Below, piece by piece: positions 117 to 19,211 of a stretch of 19,348 nt of DNA. Position 1 is the stretch's first letter, and every line of letters begins with the position of its first letter. The notes under the pieces are model-generated. The model had not been told where the DNA came from. It saw nothing but the letters and a program-made list of their open reading frames with translations, and ran no database searches. The stretch spans positions 1-19,348 of the forward strand of contig JBHLPR010000040.1 in assembly GCA_048939245.1 (NCBI GenBank). The letters run 5' to 3'. Origin of the DNA: Promethearchaeota archaeon (lineage in GTDB: Archaea; Asgardarchaeota; Hermodarchaeia; Hermodarchaeales; Hermodarchaeaceae). The translations under genes were made by a program, and so were the position numbers.

Positions 117-1406
117 TTATTGATGGGGTTCCTCTCTTTCCTTAGGTGTAATGTACGCTAGTTCGTCTGCGAAGAATTTTTCGAGATTTCTGCGACAACT
201 GGAGGTGCTTTCCTGCTGATAGACACGAATCAAGTGGTTTCGTAAGATACTCAATGGTGTTTCACCCATCTTTTCTGCAAACGCGATTTCAACCTTTGCA
301 TCAATCAACAAGGTCGCGGTATCCTTACCTCTTCTTTTTTCTTGTTTCGAGGCAGGATTTGGTAAAATCTCCCAAAGTGAAATTTCTTCATGTTTGATGT
401 CCATTATTAGAAACTGACCTACCGATCCAAAGTGGAGGCTTGGTTTAGAATCTGGTGTTGCTTCTCCTGAATCGACGGGGAATGCTACACGAAAGGTTAC
501 AGGAATAACTGGTTCGACATGTACAAGAAATGTAAGTACTTCAGAAAATGTTTCTTTTACACGCTCTTCGATTTCTTCGGTGAGCCTGTGCGATTCAAGG
601 ACCGACATTTTGCCTGCAACTTCTAAATGCATTTCTCCAAAACAAATCGGGCCAGCACGCCGTAATCTGATATCGTGAACTCCAAGTACTCCAATGATCG
701 GTTCGACTAGCTGAGCAATTTTAGATATCTTTTCAGGATCTTGACCTGCATCCATAAGGATTAGGATTGATTCGTAGGCCATTTGGAAACTGGTTCGTAA
801 GATGATAAGCCCGATGACGAATCCTACAATGAGTTCCACCCAGGGTAATCCGAAGAATGCGACGATTAATCCAATAATAACTGCGATGGTGGCAAGGATA
901 TCTAATTGGAATTCTTGACCTGAATTAAGCACAGCGTCACTTTCTGTATCTCGTCCGATTTTTTTCAGATACCAAGATATGATGATATTCACTGGAATCG
1001 ATGCAATGGAGATAATAATTGCCAGAGTGAGATTGGTGAGGACAGTTGGGAAAAAGATACGTTGAATGGCTTCCCATAATACCCCCAATCCAGTGATGAA
1101 AATAAAAATTGAGACGATAAGTGCGGCTAATGTTTCTGCTTTGAAATAACCATAAGGGTATTTTCCACTAGGGGCTTTTTGAGCAAGCCATAATCCGATA
1201 AAGACGGTGATAAGGGCAATTAGGTCGGTGAATGAATCCAGTCCTTTGGCTAATAATCCAACACTCCCGGATAGAATAGCGATGGTAAACCAGATTATCA
1301 CTAAACTAATGACAACAATTATCGCCCATTTAATGGCTTGTCGCGCTTGAGTAAGTTTTTCCTCAATTGTTGTAAGTGGTTTAGTCATTGCTTTTCTAAC
1401 TCGCAT
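117..1406 (-). CDS. cation diffusion facilitator (FieF-like) transporter with C-terminal NifB/NifX (FeMo-co biosynthesis-like) domain
   Basis: About 6 hydrophobic segments; CDF signatures DSFTD and YPYGYFKAE; dimerisation domain HDIRLRRAG...HLEV...ESHRLTEEIE...VHVEP; C-terminal HFG...ILPNP...KMGETP resembles NifB/NifX domains. Confidence 0.9.
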   Translation of the reverse strand: MRVRKAMTKPLTTIEEKLTQARQAIKWAIIVVISLVIIWFTIAILSGSVGLLAKGLDSFTDLIALITVFIGLWLAQKAPSGKYPYGYFKAETLAALIVSIFIFITGLGVLWEAIQRIFFPTVLTNLTLAIIISIASIPVNIIISWYLKKIGRDTESDAVLNSGQEFQLDILATIAVIIGLIVAFFGLPWVELIVGFVIGLIILRTSFQMAYESILILMDAGQDPEKISKIAQLVEPIIGVLGVHDIRLRRAGPICFGEMHLEVAGKMSVLESHRLTEEIEERVKETFSEVLTFLVHVEPVIPVTFRVAFPVDSGEATPDSKPSLHFGSVGQFLIMDIKHEEISLWEILPNPASKQEKRRGKDTATLLIDAKVEIAFAEKMGETPLSILRNHLIRVYQQESTSSCRRNLEKFFADELAYITPKEREEPHQ

Positions 1407-2294: not shown

Positions 2295-3287
2295 TTAGCG
2301 TGCTCGTTCGGCCGTAGTTCCGCGAAAGCCGAAGTAGAGCGTCATTATAGCCAATATCAGTGGGATTATTGCTAATCCGATGCCTGCGTAGAAAAGAAAC
2401 GCGGGGGTTAATCCGAGAAAGCCAATTTCCTGGTAGGCTAAGTAGGTAATGAAAGCGCCAACAGCGGTTAGAGCAAACCAAATAATGGACATACCAATAG
2501 TCTTTGCTTTGAACCCAGTTGTTGTTGGAATCTGTGAATAGATGACACGTCCGTTTGATGCATCCATGGCGGCTTCATAAGTTTTCCCTCCACCCACCGT
2601 GAATCGGATGTGGTAGATGGGCACATGGATATAAGCTTGATCGGTGACTTTGAAGGTTTCCTGGGCATCATCAACTTTTTCGGTTTCTCGGTTGATCCGA
2701 GCATAGATCATGTTTCGAGTAGCATCTACCGCTTGTTGTTTTGCTGTGTCCTGTGAAACCTTTGAAAATAAAACGTTAGCCGTGTACTCTTTGACTTCTT
2801 CCAGATTGAAATATCGGCGTGATCGAGTTGCTATCGGATAGTTGACAATTTCTGCTTGCGTTTTTGGACCAGCATATAAACGGATTTGCCGGGTTTGTTC
2901 CTGGTGGCCTGATTCGGCGACCCATTCCCAGTGAATGCTTGAATACCGTCCTCCTGACTGTCCCCGAAACGTGGCTTTTCGGTCAATTCCTTTATAGATT
3001 ACATCGCCTTGGACTGTGACAGTCCAATAGGGATAGAATGTCATTGAGAGATCTTTCAATTCGATTTGTTCTGCTAAATTATCTGGAACGCCAGGAATCT
3101 TGACCAAATAGGCTTTGAGAGTGTCTAGCGCATCACCCTGAGTATAATTTACCGCAAGAGCAAAATGCTCTTTCATCTGCGCTCCATCAGGGGTAAAGCT
3201 AGTACCGCAATAGGAGCATGTGATGATTGCATCCGATGGATGAATGTTTAGTGTTCCCCCACAATTTGGACAATGTTTTTGTGCCAT
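2295..3287 (-). CDS. YdjG-like zinc-ribbon membrane protein, paralog 2
   Basis: N-terminal CPNC...CSYC; FYPYW; HVPIYHIRF...YEAAMDASNGRV; two C-terminal TM segments; GGTGA SD before ATG 3287. Confidence 0.75.
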   Translation of the reverse strand: MAQKHCPNCGGTLNIHPSDAIITCSYCGTSFTPDGAQMKEHFALAVNYTQGDALDTLKAYLVKIPGVPDNLAEQIELKDLSMTFYPYWTVTVQGDVIYKGIDRKATFRGQSGGRYSSIHWEWVAESGHQEQTRQIRLYAGPKTQAEIVNYPIATRSRRYFNLEEVKEYTANVLFSKVSQDTAKQQAVDATRNMIYARINRETEKVDDAQETFKVTDQAYIHVPIYHIRFTVGGGKTYEAAMDASNGRVIYSQIPTTTGFKAKTIGMSIIWFALTAVGAFITYLAYQEIGFLGLTPAFLFYAGIGLAIIPLILAIMTLYFGFRGTTAERAR

Positions 3288-3307
3288 TTGTTTCACCTTT
3301 TCCTTAA

Positions 3308-4297
3308 TCACTCTCGTTTTTCTGCACTTATTTTGAAGGTTTGTCGGGTCGCAATGACACCGATTATTAAGCCGACGATAACTAAGGCGAGAGAAAAGAA
3401 TGAATAATCAGGGGAGAGCAATTGTGCGACGAAATATGTTCCCACAGTTCCAATTAGCAGAGCGACAATGCTCAAAAAGAACATTGCTCCCCGAAAACTA
3501 CTAGAGATTGGGACTTCTCCTTTCAAGACTTTCTTGGTATGCCCATCAATGCCGACTCGATAAGTTTCACTACCAAATCGATAGCGGACAAGCCAATGGG
3601 GGACATGTAAAAGATATGACCCAGTTTTATTTATTCGGCTATGGCAGTCCCAAATTTCTGTAGCTTTAGAATCTGCCCGGCTACGATGGTCTTGTGCCAC
3701 AAAGGTTTCAGCGACTTCATAGGCATCACCATCGGTGAGTTCGCTATTCAAAAAGAGGGGTTTTGATTCCACTGCCGTAATCGCATTGTAATCAAAGGGT
3801 TGTATGGCCCTCTTGGTCACATGAAGTGCCTTATCCAGTTCGCCCAGACTATAGAAGGTAGCACCCCGTCGACAGAGCACGTTCACAGAACGGTTTTCAT
3901 TAAATTGGCCCTGAATGGGTTCATACTCGATTTTCGTCCGTGACCGGCGTTTTCCTTGTGAATCCGTATAGTATTCGGTTTCTTGGTGCTTTTTATACCC
4001 CTGATACGAGGTAAAAGCATGCATCGATTCCACCCAGAAGGGTACGAATCGTAAATGTGCCTCGGTCATACGGGCTTTGCCACCTCGTCCAACCCACTCA
4101 GTGATTTTATCACGGACCTCACCCGCATCCATGGTGGGTTCCAAGACGAAATGATTCTCAATCTTCTCTCCCTCAACTGTGGATGTAAAACCACAATAGG
4201 CACATACCACAATTACGTCATCAGGTGACACTGCGAGGGGGGCGTTACAGGATTGGCACTTAAGAGCAGTCATGGTTTCAATAGGCTTTGTTGCCAC
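3308..4297 (-). CDS. YdjG-like zinc-ribbon membrane protein, paralog 1
   Basis: CQSC...CAYC; FVPFW; HVPHWLVRYRF...YRVGIDGHTKKVLKGEVPIS; two C-terminal TM segments; GGAGG SD before GTG 4297 (the ORF-track start at 4429 is probably over-extended). Confidence 0.75.
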   Translation of the reverse strand: MATKPIETMTALKCQSCNAPLAVSPDDVIVVCAYCGFTSTVEGEKIENHFVLEPTMDAGEVRDKITEWVGRGGKARMTEAHLRFVPFWVESMHAFTSYQGYKKHQETEYYTDSQGKRRSRTKIEYEPIQGQFNENRSVNVLCRRGATFYSLGELDKALHVTKRAIQPFDYNAITAVESKPLFLNSELTDGDAYEVAETFVAQDHRSRADSKATEIWDCHSRINKTGSYLLHVPHWLVRYRFGSETYRVGIDGHTKKVLKGEVPISSSFRGAMFFLSIVALLIGTVGTYFVAQLLSPDYSFFSLALVIVGLIIGVIATRQTFKISAEKRE

Positions 4298-4443
4298 CGT
4301 GCTTCCTCCTGTCACTGACATTGGAAAGAATGCCCTTAACTGTTTCCTCTGATTTTTCCCGTGTTTCAATTTTCTTCGACTTTTTAAATCGCTGGGCAGA
4401 AGGCTGAAAAGGAGATGCGTGCTAGGCAACTTGGTGGATCCTC

Positions 4444-8060: not shown

Positions 8061-8132
8061 CACGTTCACGCTCGAATATCGTGCACTCTTTTTGATACCT
8101 TGTATTAAGTGATTTGGGTATAATTCTTCGAA

Positions 8133-8152
8133 CGAAAAAACAGGATATAAAT
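8133..8152 (+). promoter_or_regulatory. putative BRE/TATA promoter for the SCP2-ADH-AOR cluster
   Basis: A-rich stretch followed by GATATAAAT at 8144-8152; GGTGA SD at 8193-8197 ahead of TTG 8204. Confidence 0.5.
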
Positions 8153-8203
8153 CTGAAGTCCATACACCCTTAGTTAAACACGAGTCAGATGTGGTGAAAA
8201 CAA

Positions 8204-8611
8204 TTGGTGAAATTTGGGACTCCTCAATGGATTGAACAATTCGTGAAGACCCTCAACGAAAACAAAGCTTACGCCGAAGCTGCAGCAACATGGGAAGGTG
8301 ACTTCCTCTTCATCGTCTACCCGAATAAAGAAGCTGGATTTGATGAGGAAGTAGTCATGTGGATGGACCTCTGGCATGGCAAAAGCCGAGATTATGCCCT
8401 GCTTATCGATCGCAATGCAAAAGATACAGCCTTCATATATGAAGGGGAATTAGAGAATTGGAAGGCAATCATCGAGGGGCGTCTGGATCCTATTAAAGCG
8501 CTGCTCACGAGGAAAATGAAGCTGACCGGCGATCGTGCAAAGGTTATGCGTGCAACACGAGCGGCAAAAGAGCTCGTGCGAACTGCTCAGATGATAAAAA
8601 CCGAATTCTAG
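8204..8611 (+). CDS. stand-alone SCP2 (sterol carrier protein 2-like) lipid-binding domain protein
   Basis: C-terminal WKAIIEGRLDPIKALLTRKMKLTGD is the typical SCP2 pattern; N-terminal F.TPQW...LN...Y..AAATWEGD. Confidence 0.85.
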   Translation: MVKFGTPQWIEQFVKTLNENKAYAEAAATWEGDFLFIVYPNKEAGFDEEVVMWMDLWHGKSRDYALLIDRNAKDTAFIYEGELENWKAIIEGRLDPIKALLTRKMKLTGDRAKVMRATRAAKELVRTAQMIKTEF

Positions 8612-8686
8612 CCATTGGATGCTGCGATGTGTTAAAAGTCTCCTTCATCCTATCCACTTTTTTACTGGAACACGACATTGGATGAT

Positions 8687-8723
8687 AATTCTTGAAGGCA
8701 ACTGTAAAATCCTTTCAAGAATT
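8687..8723 (+). promoter_or_regulatory. inverted repeat / stem-loop immediately upstream of the ADH ribosome-binding site
   Basis: AATTCTTGAA(GG)...(CCT)TTCAAGAATT with perfect 10-bp arms; SD GAGGTGG at 8727-8733. Confidence 0.5.
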
Positions 8724-8740
8724 TATGAGGTGGTATTCAG

Positions 8741-9910
8741 ATGTGGTATTTCCGGTCTCCGCGCCTTATTGTATTTGGAGAAGATGCGCTTGATCATCTT
8801 AAGGAACTAGAAGGTAAACGCGCCTTCGTCGTCACAGATAAAACAATAGCGAAATTAGGCTTTCTAGAAATGGTATTACAAAAACTGAAAGATAGTGGTA
8901 AAGAAGTAGCCTTCTTTGATGACATTCCCCCCGAACCTCCTGATGAGGTAGTACAAGCTTGTGCGAAGCAAGTTCGCGCATTTAATCCTGATTTGATTAT
9001 TGGCTTGGGTGGTGGTTCGGTGATGGATACAGCAAAGGTTTCTCGAATTTTGAATGAACATCCCGATCATCCAATTATCGACATTACCCCGCTTACTCCA
9101 ATTACTATTTCAAAAACAATGCTAGTGGCAATTCCAACGACATCTGGCACTGGCTCTGATGCGACTTGGGCTGCAGTCGTCACAGACAGTAAAGACCGGA
9201 ATAAGATGGAACTCACCCACCCAGAGTTAATGCCATATGTCTCGATTCTAGACCCAATCCTGACCAAGTCAATGCCACCTAAGGTGATCGCTTCTTCGGG
9301 TATGGATGCCCTGGCTCAAGCGATTGACGGTTATACTGTACAATGGCGCAATGACTTCAGTAACGCATTATGCATTCATGCGACAAGACTTGTTCTGGAC
9401 TATCTCCCCAAGGTGTATGAAAATCCCGATGATACCGCTGCACGTGAAAAATTGCACAACGCCGCCACTATCAGCGGAATGGCTTGGAGTAATTCCTTCC
9501 TTGGCATAACCCATTCCTTTGGGCATGCTATGGGTGCGGTCTTTAAAATTGCCCATGGAATCACGGTCGGAATGGTCCTTCCCTACTCCATTGAGTTTGC
9601 TTTGAAAACCAGTGCTGATTTGTACGGTGAACTGTCTCGGGCTATCGGTACCGCAAGTCCAAACGATGATGATAAAACAGCTACCCTGAAGCTCCGTGAT
9701 GTGATTTGGAAGCTGATGGATGAATTGGAAGTTCCACGAAGTCTGAAAGCCTACGGCATCTCCAAAGAGAAGTTCGAGGAAAATTATGACGATTTAGTTC
9801 GATTTACGCAAGAATCCGCGGTGAACATCTTCAATTGTCGCGAGCCAACAAACGAGGATATTGAACTTTTCTGGCATTATCTGTTTGAAGGCAAGTCAAT
9901 TGATTTCTAA
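8741..9910 (+). CDS. iron-containing (group III) alcohol dehydrogenase
   Basis: GLGGGSVMDTAK, AIPTTSGTGSD, GMDALAQ, GITHSFGH, IAHG. Confidence 0.95.
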   Translation: MWYFRSPRLIVFGEDALDHLKELEGKRAFVVTDKTIAKLGFLEMVLQKLKDSGKEVAFFDDIPPEPPDEVVQACAKQVRAFNPDLIIGLGGGSVMDTAKVSRILNEHPDHPIIDITPLTPITISKTMLVAIPTTSGTGSDATWAAVVTDSKDRNKMELTHPELMPYVSILDPILTKSMPPKVIASSGMDALAQAIDGYTVQWRNDFSNALCIHATRLVLDYLPKVYENPDDTAAREKLHNAATISGMAWSNSFLGITHSFGHAMGAVFKIAHGITVGMVLPYSIEFALKTSADLYGELSRAIGTASPNDDDKTATLKLRDVIWKLMDELEVPRSLKAYGISKEKFEENYDDLVRFTQESAVNIFNCREPTNEDIELFWHYLFEGKSIDF

Positions 9911-9955
9911 TAAAATTACCCCCTCCTACCTAATTCGATCAAGGAGCTGAATGAA

Positions 9956-11788
9956 ATGCCAACAAAGAAAGGAAATGGATTCACCGGGAAAATGCTCCAT
10001 ATTGACCTATCAGAAGGTTCATTGAAAAATCGTCCCACTCCATTAGATTGGGCACAAGAATTCATTGGGGGCGCAGGGCTGGCAGCAAAAATTCTCTACC
10101 CATTACTCTCTGCCACAACTGAGCCTCTTGGACCGAATAATCCGTTGCTATTGATGGCTGGACCCTTTGTAGGCACAGCGGTTCCAAGTTCGGGTCGATT
10201 GGCACTCTGTGCTCGTTCACCCCTCACCAGGCTGTGGGGTGAGTCTGATATCGGGGGCTATTTCGGCGCTGAAATGCGACAAGCAGGATACGACGGTATC
10301 TTGATTCAAGGACGCGCGGAAACACCTGTATACCTTTCTTTGCTCTATGGTCAGATTGAACTCAAGGATGCCAATCACCTGTGGTCCAAGACAATTTCTG
10401 AAACGCAACAGCAGTTACGGACGGAAATTAATGAAAAACGGTTTTTCACTCTCAGCATTGGACCAGCAGGGGAAAACTTGGTTAAATATGCGAATATCAT
10501 GTCAGAAGGTGGACGTGCTGCAGGACGTATGGGTCTTGGTGCTGTAATGGGAAGTAAGAATCTCAAAGCCATAGCTGTGGTTGGTGACCAAATCGTTCCC
10601 GTAGCAAATCATGGTGCGCTTGTGGAACATGTTCGGATAGCGAATAAGCTGATGATAGAAGACTTCATGCCCGACTGCTACCGAATGATGGGAACTGCCA
10701 CTGCTGTGGGTCCTGCCCAAGAAATTGGCGCCATGCCCAACAAGTACTTCACCCAAGGTGAATTTCCCACTCATGATAATATCAGTGGCGCTACCATGTC
10801 TGAAACACGTTTGGTAGGTCGTGATGGTTGTCACCGCTGCCCAATCCAATGTGGTCGTGTTGTTGAGATACCGGAGGGTCGATATAAGATACCTCGTGTG
10901 AGTGGACCCGAATATGAAACATTGGGGGCGCTAGGCTCAATGATGCTCATAGATGACCTAGATGCAATCATTACTGCTAGTCATCTCTGTGATGATCTCG
11001 GATTGGATACCATCAGTACTGGTAATAGTATTGGTTTCGCCTACTATCTCATGGATCAAGGCATACTCACCCCTAAAGAAGTAGGGGCCAATCTTGATTG
11101 GGGGAACCCTGAACCAGTTCTCTGGCTCATACCGCGAATAGCTTATCGAGAGGGTTTTGGTGATATTCTCGCTGAGGGGACACGATCCATGGGTGAGCGA
11201 TATGGTGTAGAAGACTTGGCAGTTCACGTTAAAGGTTTAGAAGTGTCCTGCTGGGATCCCCGCGCCCTCTTCGGAATGGCTACCAGCTATGCAACTAGCC
11301 CACGGGGTGGTTCGCATCTTGATGGGGATATGTACATGGTTCTACAAGGACAGGTTCAAATGGAGTTGGGAATTGACGCGGATGATCCTCAATCCGATGA
11401 AGGAATGGGCGAAATCGCTGCAAAATCTCAAAGCTGGCGGCAAGTCTCCAATTCATTGATAATCTGCCAGCTTCCAACTTATACTATTGATGATATTGTC
11501 CAATTTTACAGGAATGTTGTGGGTCGAGAAATAACACCCCAAGAATTACTTCATATTGGGGACCGAATTATTACATTAAAACGACTAATCAATCTCAATC
11601 TTGGGTTCACACCAGAGCAAGACCGACTACCAAAACTTCTCATGCAACCTCTCCAAGAGGGTGGTACTCAAGCTAAGGTTCCTGATGTGGAGAAACAACT
11701 CACAGACTATTATGCCTATCGAGACTGGGATCGCAAGACTGGTCGACCGTCAGCCGCTGCCCTTAAAAAAGTGGGACTCGCTGATTAA
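9956..11788 (+). CDS. aor: tungsten-type aldehyde:ferredoxin oxidoreductase family protein
   Basis: GRAAGRMGLGAVMGSKNLKAI, CHRCPIQC, GPEYET, CDDLGLDTIS, HVKGLE..WDPR, TSPRGG, distal Cys in SLIICQ. Confidence 0.95.
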   Translation: MPTKKGNGFTGKMLHIDLSEGSLKNRPTPLDWAQEFIGGAGLAAKILYPLLSATTEPLGPNNPLLLMAGPFVGTAVPSSGRLALCARSPLTRLWGESDIGGYFGAEMRQAGYDGILIQGRAETPVYLSLLYGQIELKDANHLWSKTISETQQQLRTEINEKRFFTLSIGPAGENLVKYANIMSEGGRAAGRMGLGAVMGSKNLKAIAVVGDQIVPVANHGALVEHVRIANKLMIEDFMPDCYRMMGTATAVGPAQEIGAMPNKYFTQGEFPTHDNISGATMSETRLVGRDGCHRCPIQCGRVVEIPEGRYKIPRVSGPEYETLGALGSMMLIDDLDAIITASHLCDDLGLDTISTGNSIGFAYYLMDQGILTPKEVGANLDWGNPEPVLWLIPRIAYREGFGDILAEGTRSMGERYGVEDLAVHVKGLEVSCWDPRALFGMATSYATSPRGGSHLDGDMYMVLQGQVQMELGIDADDPQSDEGMGEIAAKSQSWRQVSNSLIICQLPTYTIDDIVQFYRNVVGREITPQELLHIGDRIITLKRLINLNLGFTPEQDRLPKLLMQPLQEGGTQAKVPDVEKQLTDYYAYRDWDRKTGRPSAAALKKVGLAD

Positions 11789-11829
11789 TGAGAAAAGAAG
11801 ATTCCGTCGAATCCAAGTAGGATAAAACC

Positions 11830-12747
11830 ATGGAAACTTTACGGAAACAGGAACCAGAGTTATTCAACCTGTTAGACCAGGTTGCAACCGATCAACACAA
11901 TCAACTTCTCTCGTCAATGATTAATCAACTCCAACCTTATTCCAAAGGAACCCCTCAGCTTCTGCTCATGCCCAACGCGTTTGAACGAATTAAGAGCCAT
12001 TCAGAGGCTGCTGTCGACTTGGAAATGCGTGGGAAAACCCCTGAACTTATTGATTTTGGTGGATACACTCTGGTCGTACCACTCACATCGAAGAATCCCT
12101 TTGATACCCTCTATCTAACTCGCCCATTCTCCAACAAACTCAAACTCACCGTGTTTACAGACCAACCGCCCATCTTTCCCTTTGCATTGTGGTTGACACT
12201 CAATCCCGCACACCCAGGAATTACTCCGGACGGGTTCAATCCGAAGGGGGCATTCAATGCTTATCGAGGGCCAGCACCCACACTTCCAGTTAATGTTACC
12301 AAACCCAACGATCTTATCACAGCTTCGGTCCTGCTCCGGGAATCCTTAGAAACCCGATCCATAAACAAGCAGGATAAAACGGCACTTGAACAGCTCATTC
12401 CTTTTCCAGTGGAACGAGAAGTTGGAAAACGTTTCTTTCCACCTCTTCAGGTTGTCCAGAGTGGCATCGATGATATCCTTCGTCCCGAAATGTACCTTCT
12501 CCGTCTTCCTACTGTGCCACTGATTGTAACTCATGCAGAGGGGATAAAGCAGACTGTGATTCAAATTGAAACCGTCCCTACATGGCCTTCTGATTGGCGA
12601 CCTGAAAACGCATTCGCTAATACAACTCAGCGATATGTTACGATTGGGGAAGGGCTAGACTATGATATTTTTACTCTTATGACGTTGATGCGGGATTTAG
12701 CTGAAGCCACCACGGCTTCTGAGGATATTTATTGGCCAATTGGCTAG
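11830..12747 (+). CDS. hypothetical protein
   Basis: 305-aa ORF filling the gap 41 nt after aor on the same strand; Pro-rich; no recognised motif. Confidence 0.75.
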   Translation: METLRKQEPELFNLLDQVATDQHNQLLSSMINQLQPYSKGTPQLLLMPNAFERIKSHSEAAVDLEMRGKTPELIDFGGYTLVVPLTSKNPFDTLYLTRPFSNKLKLTVFTDQPPIFPFALWLTLNPAHPGITPDGFNPKGAFNAYRGPAPTLPVNVTKPNDLITASVLLRESLETRSINKQDKTALEQLIPFPVEREVGKRFFPPLQVVQSGIDDILRPEMYLLRLPTVPLIVTHAEGIKQTVIQIETVPTWPSDWRPENAFANTTQRYVTIGEGLDYDIFTLMTLMRDLAEATTASEDIYWPIG

Positions 12748-12820
12748 CTTGCTAGTAGCTGTTGCACCAAAAGGTTTATGCAATTTGAGATCCTGCGACG
12801 AATACCTTCGGTGAATTGTT

Positions 12821-13204
12821 GTGGTTTTTTGCCCCACTGCTGGTGGTCCTTGTCAGGGACGAGACAAATGTCGAATATGGATTCGTGGTCGTATCCTCTA
12901 CACCGACTCAAAACTCTTGGCTGTTCAGCTCGCGGAGTCTGTTATTGAGCATAACACCTCTGGAGATTTGCACACTATTCCAATGGAATCTCGTACAGCA
13001 TTTTGGCAAAATCAAGGGATTTCAAATATTCAACGGGAAATTCTCATCGATCGCTATCTCCGTGAGAAAGTCGAGGAGGTCGAAACCTTAGCGGTTCAAT
13101 GGCTTCAAAGCGCAGGTTTCCAGGAACGTGTTCTCAATAAGGTAAAGGGCAAAACTAAGGTATCATCTGCGCCCCATAGACTACGCTGCAAGTCCCCTCC
13201 GTAG
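12821..13204 (+). CDS. small hypothetical protein with N-terminal Cys motif (CPxxxxxCxxxxxCxxW)
   Basis: GGTGA SD at 12810-12814 before GTG; upstream AAAAGGTTTATG promoter-like element at about 12769-12780; 3' end overlaps hypD antisense. Confidence 0.65.
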   Translation: MVFCPTAGGPCQGRDKCRIWIRGRILYTDSKLLAVQLAESVIEHNTSGDLHTIPMESRTAFWQNQGISNIQREILIDRYLREKVEEVETLAVQWLQSAGFQERVLNKVKGKTKVSSAPHRLRCKSPP

Positions 13205-14276
13205 ATACCATGCATGGGCCAATTGGGTTTTCTGGGGTGCATTTTTTACCGAAAAGCGGACATTGCTCAGGGCGCATTATCCCTCGAAGGACTTCCCCGC
13301 ATTTACATCCTGGTGGCATCTCGAATTTCTGTGGTTCCAATTCAATCTCAAAGCGAGTTCGTACATCAAACATTTCATATTCTCTTCGTAACGTTAGCCC
13401 TGATTTGGGAATAATGCCAATTCCACGCCACCGCGAATCCGCCGGCGTAAATACTTGCTCGATCATCTCACGCGCCCGAACATTCCCTTCATAAGTTACT
13501 GCTCGCGTATACTCATTTTCCACTTCTCCCCTACCGTCTACCACTTGTTGCAGCAGCATGACAATTCCTAAGAGTACATCTAGGGGTTCAAATCCTGCAA
13601 CGACTTGTGGTACCTTCCATTGTGTGGAAATGTGCTCGTATCCCTCAACGCCAATAATTACTGATACATGACCTGGCAAGAGAAATCCATGCAATCCCAC
13701 TTCGCCTTGTTCAAGCAGGAATTCTTCCGCTGGAGGAATCAACCGATGACTCACTAACACACTCAAGTTCTCCGGAGGATCACCCAATATTTCGGCAGCG
13801 GTCGGTGGGGTAGTCGTTTCAAAACCAATGGCAAAATGTACCACTTCCTTTTCGGGATGCTCCTTTGCTGCAATAACCGCGTCCATCATACTATATACGA
13901 CTTGCACATTTGCTCCCTGACTTCGTGCAACATTCAATGAACCGAGATCGCCTGCAGGTACACGCATCATATCGCCAAAGGTTGTTAGTAACGCATTGGA
14001 TTGCTTAGCAACAGCAATAGCTAACGCAACATCTTCAGGAGGGCAAACACAGACTGGGCATCCTGGACCTGCGATTAGCTCTACATTCTTAGGGAGAAGA
14101 TCACGGAGTCCTGCGTGGGTGATAGTGTATTCATGTGTTCCACAAAGATGCATAAATTTGAAGGTTTGGTCCCTCGCTAATTCTTTGATCTTTTGTGAGG
14201 CTTTCCTAGCAAGTTGAGGGTCGCGAAATCCTTTTTGTACTTCCAAGGGGTCCATATTAGCGAAGCTTCCTGTCAT
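13155..14276 (-). CDS. hypD: [NiFe]-hydrogenase maturation protein HypD
   Basis: MHLCGTHE, GPGCPVC, GFETT, PGHVS, GFEPLD, CKCGEVLRG...CPLFG..CTP..PIGPCMVS.EG.C; start at 14276 or 14255. Confidence 0.97.
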   Translation of the reverse strand: MTGSFANMDPLEVQKGFRDPQLARKASQKIKELARDQTFKFMHLCGTHEYTITHAGLRDLLPKNVELIAGPGCPVCVCPPEDVALAIAVAKQSNALLTTFGDMMRVPAGDLGSLNVARSQGANVQVVYSMMDAVIAAKEHPEKEVVHFAIGFETTTPPTAAEILGDPPENLSVLVSHRLIPPAEEFLLEQGEVGLHGFLLPGHVSVIIGVEGYEHISTQWKVPQVVAGFEPLDVLLGIVMLLQQVVDGRGEVENEYTRAVTYEGNVRAREMIEQVFTPADSRWRGIGIIPKSGLTLRREYEMFDVRTRFEIELEPQKFEMPPGCKCGEVLRGIMRPEQCPLFGKKCTPENPIGPCMVSTEGTCSVVYGAQMIP

Positions 14277-14427
14277 TGGTGGGGTCTCCATATTCTGTTT
14301 TCGACCTGCATTACACCATCGCATAAGATGCCTAATACTTCTTTCGCAGTTGCATCTTCTCTAAGTGTTTGAATTTCCCGAACAGCTAAAAGCTCTTATC
14401 TATCCAGTGCCGACGAGTGTATTAACA

Positions 14428-14877
14428 ATGAGCGACGAGAAACCCCAAACCATAGAATTTGATGCGAATATTTCTTGGGACGGAGGGAAAGATGGAACTG
14501 TTACTGTTGAAGATAAACAGGCCATTCTTATTTCGTCACCAACCCATTGGGGTGGAAATCCTGCTGTTTATTCTCCTCATGACTTATTCGTGTCTGCCAT
14601 AGCAGGCTGCTATATTACGACATTTGCCACAATGATGCAACGAATGAAGCAACCACTAAAAGCCCATAACGTTTCGGGACGTGGAATTCTCACCAAGCAC
14701 CCAGAAGGTGGTTGGGACTTTACTGACATATACGTCACAATGGAAATCACCATTCCCAAGGATGCAAATCTTTCACAAGTAAAACGCGCTGTTGAATTAA
14801 CCGAGAAATATTGTCATATCTCTCGATCTGTGAAATGTAAAATGCACGTGGAACCTAAAATCACTCAACTGGATTAG
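14428..14877 (+). CDS. OsmC/Ohr-family protein (two-Cys peroxidase-like)
   Basis: WGG....SPHDLFVSAIAGCY and EKYCHISRS; ATG 14428 lies about 25 nt after a TATA-like CTTATCTA. Confidence 0.88.
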   Translation: MSDEKPQTIEFDANISWDGGKDGTVTVEDKQAILISSPTHWGGNPAVYSPHDLFVSAIAGCYITTFATMMQRMKQPLKAHNVSGRGILTKHPEGGWDFTDIYVTMEITIPKDANLSQVKRAVELTEKYCHISRSVKCKMHVEPKITQLD

Positions 14878-14981
14878 TGTTTGACCACGGAACATTCTAA
14901 ACAGGTTCGAATAGCAGGTTTAAGTAGGCAAACACACCCTTTTTTGGTCTGAATATGCTTCCCAATTTATGGGTGAAATAA

Positions 14982-16016
14982 ATGAGTGACGAAAAGCTTG
15001 GATTCGAACACCTTGAATCTAATGTGATTGACGCCAACAAATGTTGTAGTTGTGGTGGATGTGAAGCTGCCTGCCCCATCGGCGCTATTGAACTCCAAAA
15101 TCTTCGACCCACCCTAATAAAGGAATGCAATAAATGTGGGTTTTGCTGGAAATCATGTCCTCGAATGATTGAGGATTATTCTTCGTTATACCCTCTTGTG
15201 TTTGGTGAAAAAGCCCACCGTGATCCAGCACTCGGTGTCTATCGCCAAGCCTATGCACTTCGAAACAAAGACGAATCAATACGGAAACGTGCTCAAGATG
15301 GTGGAGTGGTTACTGCAATCCTTTTGCATTTACTGGAGGCTAATATTATCGAAGGTGCAGTGATTTCAGGTGTTAATCCAGGCGAGCCGTGGAAGCCCCA
15401 GCCAATGGTTGCCACCTCCCGAAAGGAAATCATTTCCGCCACCAAGTCTCGATATACCCGCTCACCGAATCTTATTGCCTTGAAGGAAGCCCTCAAAGAA
15501 CGAAAGCTAACGAAGATAGCGGTAGTAGGCACACCTTGTCATATCCAAGCAATCCAACGGATGCGACTTGCTCCGTTGAAGAAGATTGATCGAAGCGTTG
15601 TCATGACAATTGGCCTCTTTTGTAGTGAAACCTTCCAATTCAAAGAACTCATGGAAGAGAAAATTGCTGGCGAACTCGGAGTGCCCTTGGAAAATCTGAG
15701 GAAGCTCGATATCAAAGGTAAATTACTCGTCTATCCTCGTGGCGCAAAAGAATCCCTGAAAATACCCCTGAGTGAAGCAAAGCAGTGGGTAGATCCAGGT
15801 TGTCATGGCTGCAAAGATTTCGCTTCAGAATTTGCAGACATTTCAGTGGGAGGAGCAGGAACGCCAGGTAAGTGGTCTTCTGTTCTGGCTCGAAGTGAAC
15901 GTGGTCAAGGGGTCATTGATGAAATGATTGCAGCAGGACTTTTCTTCTATGAGGAATTGACTGAAGAAAGACTAAACCAGCTGCGTAAGATTGCTGCACC
16001 CAAGATTAAGTCATAG
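14982..16016 (+). CDS. coenzyme F420 hydrogenase/dehydrogenase beta-subunit family (FrhB/FpoF-like) with N-terminal 2x[4Fe-4S] domain
   Basis: CCSCGGCEAACP and CNKCGFCWKSCP; AQDGGVVT, VGTPCH, IGLFCSE, GCHGCKDF..EFADISVG. Confidence 0.92.
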   Translation: MSDEKLGFEHLESNVIDANKCCSCGGCEAACPIGAIELQNLRPTLIKECNKCGFCWKSCPRMIEDYSSLYPLVFGEKAHRDPALGVYRQAYALRNKDESIRKRAQDGGVVTAILLHLLEANIIEGAVISGVNPGEPWKPQPMVATSRKEIISATKSRYTRSPNLIALKEALKERKLTKIAVVGTPCHIQAIQRMRLAPLKKIDRSVVMTIGLFCSETFQFKELMEEKIAGELGVPLENLRKLDIKGKLLVYPRGAKESLKIPLSEAKQWVDPGCHGCKDFASEFADISVGGAGTPGKWSSVLARSERGQGVIDEMIAAGLFFYEELTEERLNQLRKIAAPKIKS

Positions 16017-16129
16017 GCTGAAGAACACGTTCTGTTGCTGTAGGGCTTCAAAGGTAAACACTTTTGTCAGTAGACCACACCAGAAGCTGTTAATCCTCTT
16101 TGCAAATACGAATTGATGGTGGTTAAACA

Positions 16130-16978
16130 TTGAGTTCTACAAACTTTCTCTTAGGCGTTCTAAAATTAGGGAATATTGGAGCCTCACCTTTGCTTGAACT
16201 CCTGTTAGATGAACGAGCAGAACGCGAAAACTTCGATGTCGTATTAATTGGTTCTGGAGCGAAAATGGACGAAGCATCAGCTGAGCGGAGTGCAAAATTG
16301 CTCATTGAACAAAAACCACACCTTGTGCTAATCCCAAGTCCTAATGCAGCCCTCAAGGGTCCAGCTAAAGCCCGAGAGCTTATCAAAGATGCAGAAATCC
16401 CAGTTATCCTATTATCCGATCTTTTACCAAAAGACCAACGTGAAACCCTTGCCGAAGCTGGATTTGGTTATATCCTCATCCCTGCTGACTCTATGATTGG
16501 TGCTCGGCGCGAGTTCTTGGACCCCACCGAAATGGCTCTTTTTAATGCCGATGTTATTCGTGTATTAGCCGCAACAGGTGCACTTCGCTGTGTCCAGCTA
16601 GCCTTAGAAGAAGTTATCACAAGCATCATGGCAGGCAAGACGCCCCAACTGCCAACGCTCGTGATCAACGCAAGCCGGGCCGTTAGCGCGGGGAAGTTTA
16701 CTAATCCCTATGCAAAAGTAAAAGCCATGGCTGCCTATGAAATGGCAGTTGCTGTGGCGCCTATTAATGTGAAGGGCTGTTTCAAACAAAAAGAACACCA
16801 GAAATACATTCCCACTGTTGCGAGTGCCCATGAGATGATGCGCACTGCGGCTCTTCTCGCTGATGAAGCCCGAGAAATTGAAAAATACGGGGATAGTCTT
16901 CATCGTTCTCCTCACTTCAACGACGGAAGCGTTGGCACTCTAAGCAGATTAGGAAGCAAACCCGAGAAACCTAAATAG
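16130..16978 (+). CDS. mtd: F420-dependent methylene-tetrahydromethanopterin dehydrogenase
   Basis: KLGNIG...LLDERAER, GSGAKM, SPNAALKGP, DSMIGARREFLDPTEMALFN, NPYAKVKA, AHEMMR.AA.LADEAREIEK. Confidence 0.96.
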   Translation: MSSTNFLLGVLKLGNIGASPLLELLLDERAERENFDVVLIGSGAKMDEASAERSAKLLIEQKPHLVLIPSPNAALKGPAKARELIKDAEIPVILLSDLLPKDQRETLAEAGFGYILIPADSMIGARREFLDPTEMALFNADVIRVLAATGALRCVQLALEEVITSIMAGKTPQLPTLVINASRAVSAGKFTNPYAKVKAMAAYEMAVAVAPINVKGCFKQKEHQKYIPTVASAHEMMRTAALLADEAREIEKYGDSLHRSPHFNDGSVGTLSRLGSKPEKPK

Positions 16979-17059
16979 CAGCATTTTGCCAATTTCAAAC
17001 AAGCGGCATTTCCACTATCCACTAGCTCAAAGATATCTACGCTGAAGAAGGTCTGCAGA

Positions 17060-17554
17060 CTATCTCTTTGACTTATCCAAATTCGGCGATTCCCAATCCT
17101 TCCGGAGGGGATAGACATCCTTCGGCCAATCTTCTGGCAGAATTAAGCGTTTCAGGTTCGGATGTCCCTTAAATTTGATTCCCAAGAGATCGTGGACTTC
17201 ACGCTCGTATAATGTCGCACCAGGTATTAGGGGTGTAATGGAATCCACCTCAGGATGGGAGGTGGGCACCTGGATATGCAAGCTTACAGAAACTGACTTC
17301 ACTTCAAAATGGTAAATGACAGCTAATTCGCCTCGAAGGTCCATTCCAGTTATCGTTGAAAGATGGTATAAGCCCCATTCTTGTTTCATCCATTCGACAG
17401 CTTTCCGTACGGCTTCAGCTTTCACAGTAACATAGATGCTGCCTTCACGCAAAAACTCTGACGAAATGAAATCTTCGCCCATGGCTTTTTCAATCTCAGC
17501 CATCATACCTGCTTCTTTCTTCGTAGGCTTTTTCGGGGTTTTCTCTTCTGTCAT
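17060..17554 (-). CDS. NuoC/MbhK-like subunit of a complex I-like / group 4 hydrogenase
   Basis: HLSTITGMD, YHF, SITPLIPGATLYEREVHDLLGIKFKGHPNLKRLILPEDWP...YPLRKD. Confidence 0.92.
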   Translation of the reverse strand: MTEEKTPKKPTKKEAGMMAEIEKAMGEDFISSEFLREGSIYVTVKAEAVRKAVEWMKQEWGLYHLSTITGMDLRGELAVIYHFEVKSVSVSLHIQVPTSHPEVDSITPLIPGATLYEREVHDLLGIKFKGHPNLKRLILPEDWPKDVYPLRKDWESPNLDKSKR

Positions 17555-17585
17555 ATCTTGTTTCCTCCATCCTTTTCATAAAAAC

Positions 17586-18020
17586 TCATGAACCAGCCAA
17601 TTTACCAAGGAGTGCCGCAACGCCATAAATTATGGCTTCAGGTTTCGGTGGACAACCAGGAATCCATGCATCCACAGGAATCACATCATCTAAGCCACCC
17701 GCAACATTATAACATTCCCGGAACACGCCACCAGACATTGTGCAGGCCCCTATGCCCACCACAAACTTGGGATCAGGAGTTTGATTATAAATTCGTAAAA
17801 AGCGCTTTGCAACCTGTTTAGTAATCGGTCCAGAACATAACAGAACATCTGCATGACGCGGACTGCCTTTCAACAAAACTCCAAACCGTTCTAGATCATA
17901 GCGCGGTGTCAATGCGTCGAGAATTTCGATATCGCACCCGTTACATCCTCCGCTATTCAGATGGAGTACCCATGGAGATTTGATGCGTGCCCATGTTACT
18001 ATCTTATCAACAATACCCAT
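17586..18020 (-). CDS. NuoB-family [4Fe-4S] subunit, group 4 hydrogenase small-subunit type (MbhJ/EchC-like)
   Basis: SPWVLHLNSGGCNGCDIE, PRYDLERFG, SPRHAD, GAC, PGCPPKPE; true start ATG 18020 (the track start at 18227 runs through the nuoA-like gene). Confidence 0.93.
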   Translation of the reverse strand: MGIVDKIVTWARIKSPWVLHLNSGGCNGCDIEILDALTPRYDLERFGVLLKGSPRHADVLLCSGPITKQVAKRFLRIYNQTPDPKFVVGIGACTMSGGVFRECYNVAGGLDDVIPVDAWIPGCPPKPEAIIYGVAALLGKLAGS

Positions 18021-18039
18021 TGTGGTTTCCTCTTTTCGT

Positions 18040-18381
18040 TTATTTTCGTAGAATGATGATTGCCAAGAATGCGACTGCCAGGAAGATGATTGGCACCCAG
18101 CCAAGGACACCCATAGATGTCGCAAGCACAAAGGCGACGATGTCAAAGATGGTAAAATAGACGGCATACCGGAGAAGGTGGGTGTGGAATTGGGCTTTAG
18201 TCGCAGGAAGTTCTTCGCCACAGGCATAGGTTGTGATTTTTTCCTTCGTGGGATTACTAGGCGCTATACGACTACCAACCCAGTAGAGGAGAACGACGAT
18301 TAGCAGAATTACGCCAAAGGCGGCAAGGAACCAACCAACATTACCGATATTATTCAGCCAACTGAAATATTCTGCCTGCAT
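18040..18381 (-). CDS. NuoA-like three-TM membrane subunit
   Basis: EKITTYACGE loop, YAVYFTIFDIVAF, three hydrophobic segments; GGTGA SD favours ATG 18381 (alternative 18390). Confidence 0.88.
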   Translation of the reverse strand: MQAEYFSWLNNIGNVGWFLAAFGVILLIVVLLYWVGSRIAPSNPTKEKITTYACGEELPATKAQFHTHLLRYAVYFTIFDIVAFVLATSMGVLGWVPIIFLAVAFLAIIILRK

Positions 18382-18437
18382 TTTCTGCATTCACCACAGG
18401 TCTTATGGCTTGTTAGCAGTTCAAGGGTTGGGCTTCG

Positions 18438-18444
18438 TATAAAA
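18438..18444 (-). promoter_or_regulatory. putative TATA box (TTTTATA) for the nuoA/B/C-like unit
   Basis: Located in the intergenic gap about 50-60 nt upstream of the nuoA-like start. Confidence 0.45.
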
Positions 18445-18489
18445 GGCTTGCTCCCTGAGGAACTTTTACTTTCAAGCACAACCTTGGAA

Positions 18490-18657
18490 TTAATCACTGA
18501 TTTCGATACGAACCTTCTCGGTGCCTTTCAATTTAGGCACTCGAAGAGTAGACACAACAGCCACAACAATTGTATGCAATAGTCTGTCGATATAGTCATT
18601 CATACCAATTTCACGGTCAAATATGATGAGGGTCGTTTTTCTTTCCTTAGATGTCAT
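18490..18657 (-). CDS. 55-aa small protein coupled to mobB, resembling the C-terminal extension of archaeal MobB proteins
   Basis: Hand translation MTSKERKTTLIIFDREIGMNDYIDRLLHTIVVAVVSTLRVPKLKGTEKVRIEISD*; ATGA overlap with the mobB stop; absent from the ORF track. Confidence 0.75.
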   Translation of the reverse strand: MTSKERKTTLIIFDREIGMNDYIDRLLHTIVVAVVSTLRVPKLKGTEKVRIEISD

Positions 18658-19211
18658 TCTTGGTCACCAATAGAAATGGTTGGTGCTGTAAGAAGCCATT
18701 TATCAATTGCTTCCAACAAGAAGGGAAACTCCGCAGGAATCTGAATCACTGATTCAATATTAGGGTTCAGAGTACACTGACCGAGGATGGGGCCTGTAGT
18801 TTCCACTTGAAATTCGGAGATTTCGTCGGTTGTGCGGATGCAGATAACCTTTGCGATACTCGGATCTTTCTGCGTCCAAAACCGAAATCCTTCAAGAACA
18901 ATGACATCGGCTGGAATTGCGGTGGCTCCATAACTCAGTAATTCCTTGAGTTGAGTAATTGGTTGTCGAAGAAGCAGAGCTGTTGCACTTTCACTATGAA
19001 GAAATGTAGCTGATGCTCCTGCATCCAGATGTCGATACGAATCAGTCCCTGGTGAATCCAGTGAAAATTCAGGGTCACCTACATGTTTTGCACTGAGCAC
19101 ATGAAACTTTTGCTCAACAAGGTGTGCAATAATTTTAGTCGTTACGGTGGTTTTTCCCGAATCCTTGTACCCAAATACCGAGATAGTTGGAGGCAATGAA
19201 ACAGTCAACAA
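18654..19211 (-). CDS. mobB: molybdopterin-guanine dinucleotide biosynthesis protein B
   Basis: Walker A GYKDSGKTT, AKH, DSPGTDSYRH..AGA, DVIVLEGF; GGAGG SD just upstream of tandem TTG codons. Confidence 0.9.
   Translation of the reverse strand: MLTVSLPPTISVFGYKDSGKTTVTTKIIAHLVEQKFHVLSAKHVGDPEFSLDSPGTDSYRHLDAGASATFLHSESATALLLRQPITQLKELLSYGATAIPADVIVLEGFRFWTQKDPSIAKVICIRTTDEISEFQVETTGPILGQCTLNPNIESVIQIPAEFPFLLEAIDKWLLTAPTISIGDQE

Follow-up and report, generated by a model that had tools for sequence, protein, structure and literature searches.

A conserved SCP2-fold protein linked to an iron-type alcohol dehydrogenase and an aldehyde:ferredoxin oxidoreductase in Asgard archaea and other anaerobic lineages

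We analysed a stretch of 19,348 nucleotides from a Promethearchaeota archaeon (contig JBHLPR010000040.1 of GenBank assembly GCA_048939245.1; hereafter the window), which is one whole contig (C30) of a metagenome-assembled genome (MAG) of 2.5 Mb and 88% completeness. The closest relatives of this genome carry the labels Hermodarchaeota, Hodarchaeota or Promethearchaeota, all of which are Asgard archaea. Within positions 8204–11788, Pfam searches identified genes for an SCP2-fold protein, an iron-type alcohol dehydrogenase (Fe-ADH, here also ADH) and an aldehyde:ferredoxin oxidoreductase (AOR), in that order and all on the forward strand (Table 1). A prediction made earlier from the sequence had described three co-oriented genes, each with its own Shine–Dalgarno sequence, behind one TATA promoter. 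The orientation, the ribosome-binding sites and the TATA box, which is invariant among relatives, all hold; the run, however, comprises five genes rather than three, with two further open reading frames (ORFs) 3' of the AOR gene at gaps of 41 and 73 nt.

The SCP2-fold protein scores 29.5 bits with PF02036 (cut-off 21.3) over profile positions 9–98 of 101. Its AlphaFold2 (AF2) model has a predicted local distance difference test score (pLDDT) of 96.2 and, when compared using Foldseek, resembles a Thermus protein (2CX7 and 1WFR) with template-modelling (TM) scores of 0.85–0.90 and classical SCP2s from rabbit, human, yeast and insect with TM scores of 0.5–0.6, the latter at a Foldseek probability of 1.0. 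As modelled, the SCP2 fold is genuine. The WEGD...DLWHG signature singled out in the original prediction proved real, with eight residues (W30, E31, G32, D33, L56, H58, G59 and R62) invariant in 53 subfamily sequences. In the alignment and the AF2 model, the invariant polar residues sit at the start of strand 1 and in the strand 2–3 hairpin, where they could form a protein interface or a structural salt bridge. Residue 61 (window 8384–8386) is Cys in 46 of the 53 sequences, Ser in the window protein and one Chloroflexia protein, and Ala in five.

The ADH matches both halves of its family well (PF00465, E = 1e-47; PF25137, E = 2e-37), and its nearest solved relative is the ADH domain of AdhE (3ZDR, E = 7e-70). 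The AdhE model aligned over positions 456–867 only, with 306 bits against a cut-off of 951, corresponding to the ADH domain without the CoA-acylating aldehyde dehydrogenase (ALDH) domain. The GGGS dinucleotide-binding motif is intact, with G90-G91-G92-S93 invariant. The metal site reads D189-Q193-H258-H272, in which Gln replaces the second canonical His ligand (window 9317–9319). Among 56 sequences of the SCP2-linked ADH clade, 39 have His at position 193, 11 have Gln and 6 have Asn; Gln is found throughout the window's family. Judging from the residues present, the amide oxygen of Q193 could ligate the metal, and the site may differ from that of textbook Fe-ADHs. We detected no co-variation between His193/Gln/Asn of the ADH and Cys61/Ser of the SCP2-fold protein.

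The third protein belongs to the 'AOR proper' type (AFOR_N, E = 3e-73; AFOR_C, E = 6e-121). Its nearest structure is the Pyrococcus furiosus enzyme (1AOR, E = 1e-125), followed by 9MQX (4e-121) and 9G7J (5e-110), with weaker matches to the other types FOR (1e-88), WOR5 (4e-64) and BamB (2e-53). Residues C292, C295, C299 and C504, E321 and H454 align with C288, C291, C295 and C494, E313 and H448 of the P. furiosus enzyme, and the protein thereby keeps the CxxCxxxC motif and distal Cys of the [4Fe-4S] cluster together with the catalytic Glu and His. It also carries the pterin-binding DxxGLDT motif, and its cofactor is predicted to be a tungstopterin accompanied by the [4Fe-4S] cluster.

The original prediction had proposed a synteny survey of this SCP2 subfamily. 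We searched one genome per GTDB species using an alignment of the subfamily as query and kept the best 79 loci from at least 500 relatives. In the window's own family synteny extends over all 16 kb of the neighbourhood, and linkage there is uninformative. Outside that family there were 72 loci, one per species, comprising 11 from Asgard archaea, 24 from Bathyarchaeia and kin, 25 from Chloroflexota, 8 from Thermoplasmatota and 4 from other lineages. An Fe-ADH gene lies directly 3' of the SCP2 gene on the same strand at 57 of 70 informative loci, with a median gap of about 37 nt, and directly 5' of it at 3 more; it is found within 8 kb at 64 of 70. The AOR gene comes directly after the ADH gene at 25 of 42 informative loci. 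In an unbiased clustering of 853 ORFs from the 72 loci, the only recurrent families were SCP2, Fe-ADH (52 loci) and AOR (34 loci), the next-best cluster reaching no more than 10 loci. The linkage is far beyond chance. The outcome named beforehand as refuting the prediction, SCP2 orthologs without linkage to AOR and ADH elsewhere, is clearly contradicted by the survey. Less frequent neighbours are genes for acyl-CoA dehydrogenase, at 6 loci, and for thiolase-like proteins and acyl-CoA ligase, at 5 loci each. At seven Bathyarchaeia loci (L079, L081, L082, L085 and others), the stretch that separates the SCP2-linked ADH gene from the AOR gene encodes, on the opposite strand, a thiamine pyrophosphate (TPP)-dependent enzyme of about 594 amino acids, of the decarboxylase or acetolactate-synthase type.

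Gene fusions join the same families. A Hodarchaeota MAG encodes an SCP2::Fe-ADH fusion of 554 amino acids (P0122), and ADH::AOR fusions of about 1000 amino acids, which form 14 clusters from Asgard MAGs, are the top long relatives of the ADH; two of these are continuous ORFs that start 24–33 nt 3' of an SCP2 gene. Other partners fused to SCP2 domains of the subfamily are an acyl-CoA reductase of the LuxC type and an R2-like ligand-binding oxidase (R2lox). At the window locus itself the SCP2 gene stands alone, without a fusion. Together, the synteny and the fusions support the proposal that the three genes make up a functional unit that has been conserved. One candidate AOR–SCP2 fusion (P0131) was not used: it is a 303-aa AFOR_C fragment with a partial SCP2-like match and no Pfam SCP2 match.

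The dependence between the three genes is asymmetric. Across 42 Asgard genomes outside the window's family, a strong SCP2 match was found in 12, every one of which also has this ADH clade; the ADH clade occurred without SCP2 in about seven genomes and SCP2 alone in none. There are also ADH–AOR pairs without an adjoining SCP2 gene, and in one family SCP2 lies 3.5–14 kb away on the same contig. On a tree of 77 ADH sequences, the SCP2-less enzymes form two well-supported clades, requiring three label changes (0 of 500 shuffles gave a number as low), and two genomes (G044 and G049) each hold both kinds of ADH paralog, SCP2-linked and SCP2-less. Pairwise distances of SCP2 and ADH are correlated (Mantel r = 0.70; 0 of 2000 permutations as high) with r = 0.15 for distant pairs, consistent with inheritance as a unit and nothing beyond that. 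The nested phyletic pattern and the clade-specific linkage indicate that the catalytic core consists of ADH and AOR, with SCP2 serving one ADH lineage as an accessory. SCP2 is tied mainly to the ADH, with AOR as a frequent but not obligatory third gene.

We also examined the other SCP2 and AOR genes of the same genome, which holds four SCP2-domain genes and eight AORs. Three of the four SCP2 genes lie within 4 kb of an AOR; excluding that of the window, the figure is two of three, for which our own arithmetic gives a chance probability of about 0.004. On one contig (C86, locus L146, 3281–11052), a fusion of acyl-CoA dehydrogenase (ACAD), SCP2 and MaoC (675 amino acids) is flanked by genes for an aldehyde dehydrogenase and an FAD-binding oxidoreductase and adjoins another AOR with its own 4Fe-4S ferredoxin gene, in a neighbourhood of the beta-oxidation type. 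On another (C9, locus L147, 5303–12321), a stand-alone SCP2 of 111 amino acids heads a set of genes in one orientation, for 2-hydroxyacid dehydrogenase, FGGY kinase, class II aldolase, AOR and a GltD/NfnB-like protein; the set looks like a route from a deoxy-sugar through lactaldehyde to lactate by way of AOR, with SCP2 in a non-lipid context. With SCP2 genes beyond the window also near AORs, the SCP2–AOR association is broader than the window's subfamily and not obviously restricted to lipids.

The route formed by AOR and ADH is established biochemistry (PMC10816221, PMC5367853, PMC12727526). The two-enzyme systems of Thermoanaerobacter sp. X514, Clostridium autoethanogenum and Pyrococcus/Thermococcus draw on the same families as the window, namely 'AOR proper' and group III Fe-ADH, and carry out the same CoA- and ATP-independent chemistry between acid, aldehyde and alcohol with ferredoxin and NAD(P)H (PMC10816221, PMC8466923, PMC5367853, PMC12727526). 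As far as we found, the described systems have no dedicated SCP2 partner, whereas in the module found here ADH and AOR form a fixed pair, fused in some Asgard archaea, that follows a specialized SCP2. A literature search on SCP2 together with AOR and ADH returned no description of such a module and no paper on a characterized SCP2 role in an AOR–ADH pathway, in agreement with the original prediction. New here are the asymmetric dependence, in which SCP2 implies the ADH clade and not the reverse, and the clade-specific linkage on the ADH tree; so are the change from His to Gln or Asn at an ADH ligand position, a conserved element in the SCP2–ADH spacer (see below) and the evidence from the sugar-type run against a purely lipid reading.

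Three other systems bear comparison with the module. The putative SCP2 TT1886 of Thermus thermophilus HB8, the protein of structures 1WFR and 2CX7, belongs to the same subfamily (profile E = 2e-30) and has WEG and DLWHGxCR in common with the window protein; it differs in having Ser for Asp33 and Ala for Lys60, and its host is aerobic. Classical SCP2 or nonspecific lipid-transfer proteins, and the SCP2 domains of MFE-2, SCPx, alkylsulfatases and UbiJ, share the alpha/beta fold and are likewise accessory to enzymes with apolar substrates, but they are only 12–20% identical, do not have the invariant polar signature of the subfamily and have other enzyme partners. AdhE, which provides the nearest solved ADH domain, couples an aldehyde-forming with an aldehyde-consuming activity as the window module would, and modules of the window type also achieve this by ADH::AOR fusion. 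In AdhE, however, the aldehyde side is a CoA-acylating ALDH, whereas the window module has an AOR, predicted to be tungsten-dependent, that would act on free acids, and an additional SCP2, with no known spirosome.

We consider it somewhat probable that the SCP2-fold protein acts as an accessory bound to the ADH within an ADH–AOR assembly. It would take up the apolar part of an alcohol or aldehyde of low solubility and pass the molecule on inside the assembly. In such a scheme the NAD(P)-linked Fe-ADH and the ferredoxin-linked AOR would turn alcohol, aldehyde and acid into one another with no need of CoA or ATP, and the two enzymes would probably be held together so that the reactive aldehyde passes directly from one to the other. 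The SCP2-fold protein would most likely bind the ADH, keep the apolar part of the ligand in its tunnel and deliver the ligand to the enzymes. The substrate could be a medium- or long-chain aliphatic compound, or a branched or aromatic one derived from amino acids, and the cluster of E31, H58 and R62 may lie near the polar head group of the ligand. The domain identities, the intact catalytic residues, the gene order, the fusions, the nested phyletic pattern and the clade-specific linkage are observed; that the proteins bind each other, what kind of ligand is involved, which way the flux runs and what the polar cluster does are inferred. Hints of an apolar ligand come from the SCP2 fold itself, the fusions to LuxC and R2lox, the ACAD, thiolase-like and ligase neighbours and the ACAD–SCP2–MaoC fusion elsewhere in the genome. 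A further hint comes from Thermus, where FadR, a regulator responding to fatty acids, represses the TTHA0401–TTHA0400 operon for a hypothetical protein and a Zn-dehydrogenase (PMC5597230). TTHA0401 is presumably TT1886, the protein of 2CX7 and 1WFR; its ADH partner belongs to the unrelated Zn/MDR family, and there is no AOR. A substrate that is specifically a long-chain or isoprenoid lipid is only indirectly supported, by the fold, the LuxC and R2lox fusions, the occasional beta-oxidation neighbours and the Thermus operon.

Several observations weigh against this reading. For a lipid carrier, the subfamily shows unusually strong conservation, and the residues that never vary in it are polar (W-E-G-D, H-G and R). 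The ADH is nearest to the ethanol-type domain of AdhE and the AOR is of a broad-spectrum type, which leaves room for short-chain substrates. The TPP-dependent enzyme that lies amid ADH and AOR in Bathyarchaeia suggests aldehydes derived from 2-oxoacids, and the SCP2 at the head of the sugar-type run with AOR implies a hydrophilic aldehyde. In some lineages ADH–AOR pairs do without SCP2. The survey itself covers the best 79 of at least 500 loci, and these are phylogenetically clustered. The argument from Thermus, finally, depends on the presumed identity of TTHA0401 with the 2CX7 protein.

A possible, though rather doubtful, alternative gives the SCP2-fold protein a structural or regulatory role, not that of a lipid carrier, as a subunit that docks by its invariant polar patch on the ADH or on an ADH–AOR assembly, where it would cap or gate aldehyde transfer or stabilize the enzymes, with short-chain substrates such as ethanol, acetaldehyde and acetate. 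It would account for the polar character of the invariant residues and their clustering at the start of strand 1 and in the strand 2–3 hairpin, and it fits an ADH closest to that of AdhE, the ADH::AOR and SCP2::ADH fusions, which point to a physical assembly, and the SCP2 that heads a sugar-type cluster with AOR; the proximity of two of the three other SCP2 genes of the genome to an AOR, at the chance level given above, points the same way. Against it, the SCP2 fold is known overwhelmingly as a binder of apolar ligands, the subfamily is fused to the lipid-handling LuxC and R2lox, the Thermus operon belongs to the fatty-acid regulon, and the polar cluster is perhaps merely a structural salt-bridge network. 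Were this account correct, the module would be a CoA-independent functional counterpart of AdhE. A bolder version, which we think unlikely, makes the subfamily an obligate third subunit of a stable ADH–AOR complex that encloses the aldehyde, in anaerobic archaea and Chloroflexota, rather than a free lipid shuttle, with the fold recruited independently to a Zn-ADH in Thermus. If so, the three-subunit complex would be a tungsten-based, CoA-independent counterpart of AdhE with a substrate-gating subunit of its own.

The original prediction had gone further than the accessory role favoured here, proposing that the breakdown of ether lipids or hydrocarbons supplies long-chain or isoprenoid alcohols and aldehydes, which the stand-alone SCP2 carries between ADH and AOR, with the reduced ferredoxin feeding a neighbouring group 4 hydrogenase. 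We regard this version as improbable. It is compatible with the SCP2 fold and with the fusions and neighbours of lipid type, and alkane degradation has been proposed for MAGs labelled Hermodarchaeota (PMC8163825), but the same paper treats AORs for amino-acid-derived aldehydes only (PMC8163825), neither the window nor the conserved module shows any connection to ether lipids, isoprenoids or the activation of hydrocarbons, and the module is widespread in lineages that ferment peptides and sugars. Nor is the proposed link to a hydrogenase supported: the window has only NuoB- and NuoC-like genes (17060–18227, reverse strand), about 5.3 kb away, and no hydrogenase large subunit, all homologs of NiFe/NuoD-type large subunits being on other contigs. 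That the gene order reflects chance or hitch-hiking, with SCP2 having no role in the ADH and AOR reactions, is very improbable indeed: synteny of the whole 16-kb neighbourhood would allow it within the window's own family, but the linkage persists in Bacteria and Archaea in which all flanking genes differ, fusions exist and the phyletic pattern is nested.

The AOR–ADH route has a central place in the making of bio-alcohols and in the turnover of carbon in anoxic sediments and is, to our knowledge, the only known biological reduction of non-activated acids to alcohols. A small dedicated partner protein, conserved from Asgard archaea, Bathyarchaeia and Thermoplasmatota to Chloroflexota, would supply a component that this route has lacked. 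If the SCP2-fold protein extends the route to poorly soluble substrates, or guards against reactive aldehydes, it bears on the diet of abundant uncultured lineages and on enzyme engineering. The module also offers a testable function for TT1886, a structural-genomics orphan, in the genetically tractable Thermus.

Table 1 Features of the window in and around the SCP2–ADH–AOR run
Feature	Positions	Strand	Details
Promoter block: purine-rich stretch like the transcription factor B recognition element (BRE) plus TATA box ATATAAA	8140–8152	+	Sequence ACAGGATATAAA; TATA box at 8146–8152
Shine–Dalgarno sequence GGTGA of the SCP2 gene	8193–8197	+	6 nt 5' of the TTG start at 8204
SCP2-fold protein, 135 aa, WEGDF / DLWHGK(C)R subfamily	8204–8611	+	Pfam SCP2 PF02036
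Conserved T-run block in the 130-nt SCP2–ADH spacer	~8655–8668	+	Sequence CACTTTTTTACTGG; best-conserved spacer stretch across the genus
Imperfect palindrome	8689–8724	+	ATTCTTGAAGG ... CCTTTCAAGAAT; directly 5' of the ADH ribosome-binding site
Iron-type (group III) alcohol dehydrogenase, 389 aa	8741–9910	+	Fe-ADH PF00465 and ADH_Fe_C PF25137
Aldehyde:ferredoxin oxidoreductase, 610 aa, 'AOR proper'	9956–11788	+	AFOR_N and AFOR_C
305-aa protein of no known family	11830–12747	+	41 nt 3' of AOR
ORF of ~127 aa, gene status uncertain	12821–13204	+	3' end overlaps the convergent hypD

The promoter block and the ribosome-binding site of the SCP2 gene are conserved within the genus. The promoter block lies about 52–64 nt 5' of the SCP2 start, and its T/ATAAA core and the flanking ACAG are invariant in the 10 readable genus orthologs. 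GGTGAA precedes the SCP2 gene in all 11 genus orthologs compared, and the start codon, TTG in the window, is ATG in most of them. The corresponding ribosome-binding sequences are GAGGTGG for the ADH gene, about 7 nt 5' of the ATG at 8741, and AGGAG for the AOR gene, about 9 nt 5' of the ATG at 9956. The T-run block in the SCP2–ADH spacer could be an oligo-T terminator or attenuator or an internal promoter element, and, with such a conserved block of its own in the spacer, a single uninterrupted transcript is not established. A look for public RNA runs covering positions 8100–12800 turned up none. The palindrome that follows it folds, as a single sequence, into a 12-bp hairpin of –10.3 kcal/mol with a z-score of –1.8. 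Eight of 10 orthologous spacers fold into hairpins, but out of register and with modest z-scores, and RNAalifold returned 0 consensus pairs; we make no claim of a conserved hairpin.

Of the two ORFs that follow AOR, the first encodes the 305-aa protein, which is 55–83% identical within the window's Asgard family and is not found in distant module loci. It had no match in Pfam or NCBIfam and no Atlas lead (best score 0.80), and its AF2 model has a pLDDT of 42. This protein is specific to the window's Asgard family and stands outside the wider module. The second ORF is 47–63% identical within the family and likewise had no Pfam or NCBIfam match. A different gene lies 3' of the ADH::AOR fusions of the Heimdall group (L112, 11481–12335; L108, 7424–8260); it is conserved there and encodes about 280 amino acids, with a winged-helix/DUF7347 domain at the N terminus and a membrane domain resembling Yip1. 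The product could be a regulator of the module anchored in the membrane, and it bears no relation to the 305-aa protein of the window (hhalign probability 0.1).

Other genes of the window flank the run on both sides. Positions 117–1406 (reverse strand) encode a cation-diffusion-facilitator transporter (Cation_efflux and ZT_dimer) with a C-terminal domain like the dinitrogenase FeMo-cofactor-binding domain (PF02579), an unusual pairing. Positions 13155–19211 encode HypD, an OsmC-like protein, an FrhB-like F420-related subunit, an F420-dependent methylene-tetrahydromethanopterin (H4MPT) dehydrogenase (Mtd), the NuoC/NuoB-like pair, which has no adjoining large subunit, and MobB. Between the transporter and the SCP2 gene, positions 2295–4429 (reverse strand) encode tandem paralogues of 338 and 373 amino acids with about 20–23% mutual identity, which show a hint of a zinc ribbon or TPR without a clear family and are kept together throughout the Asgard family.

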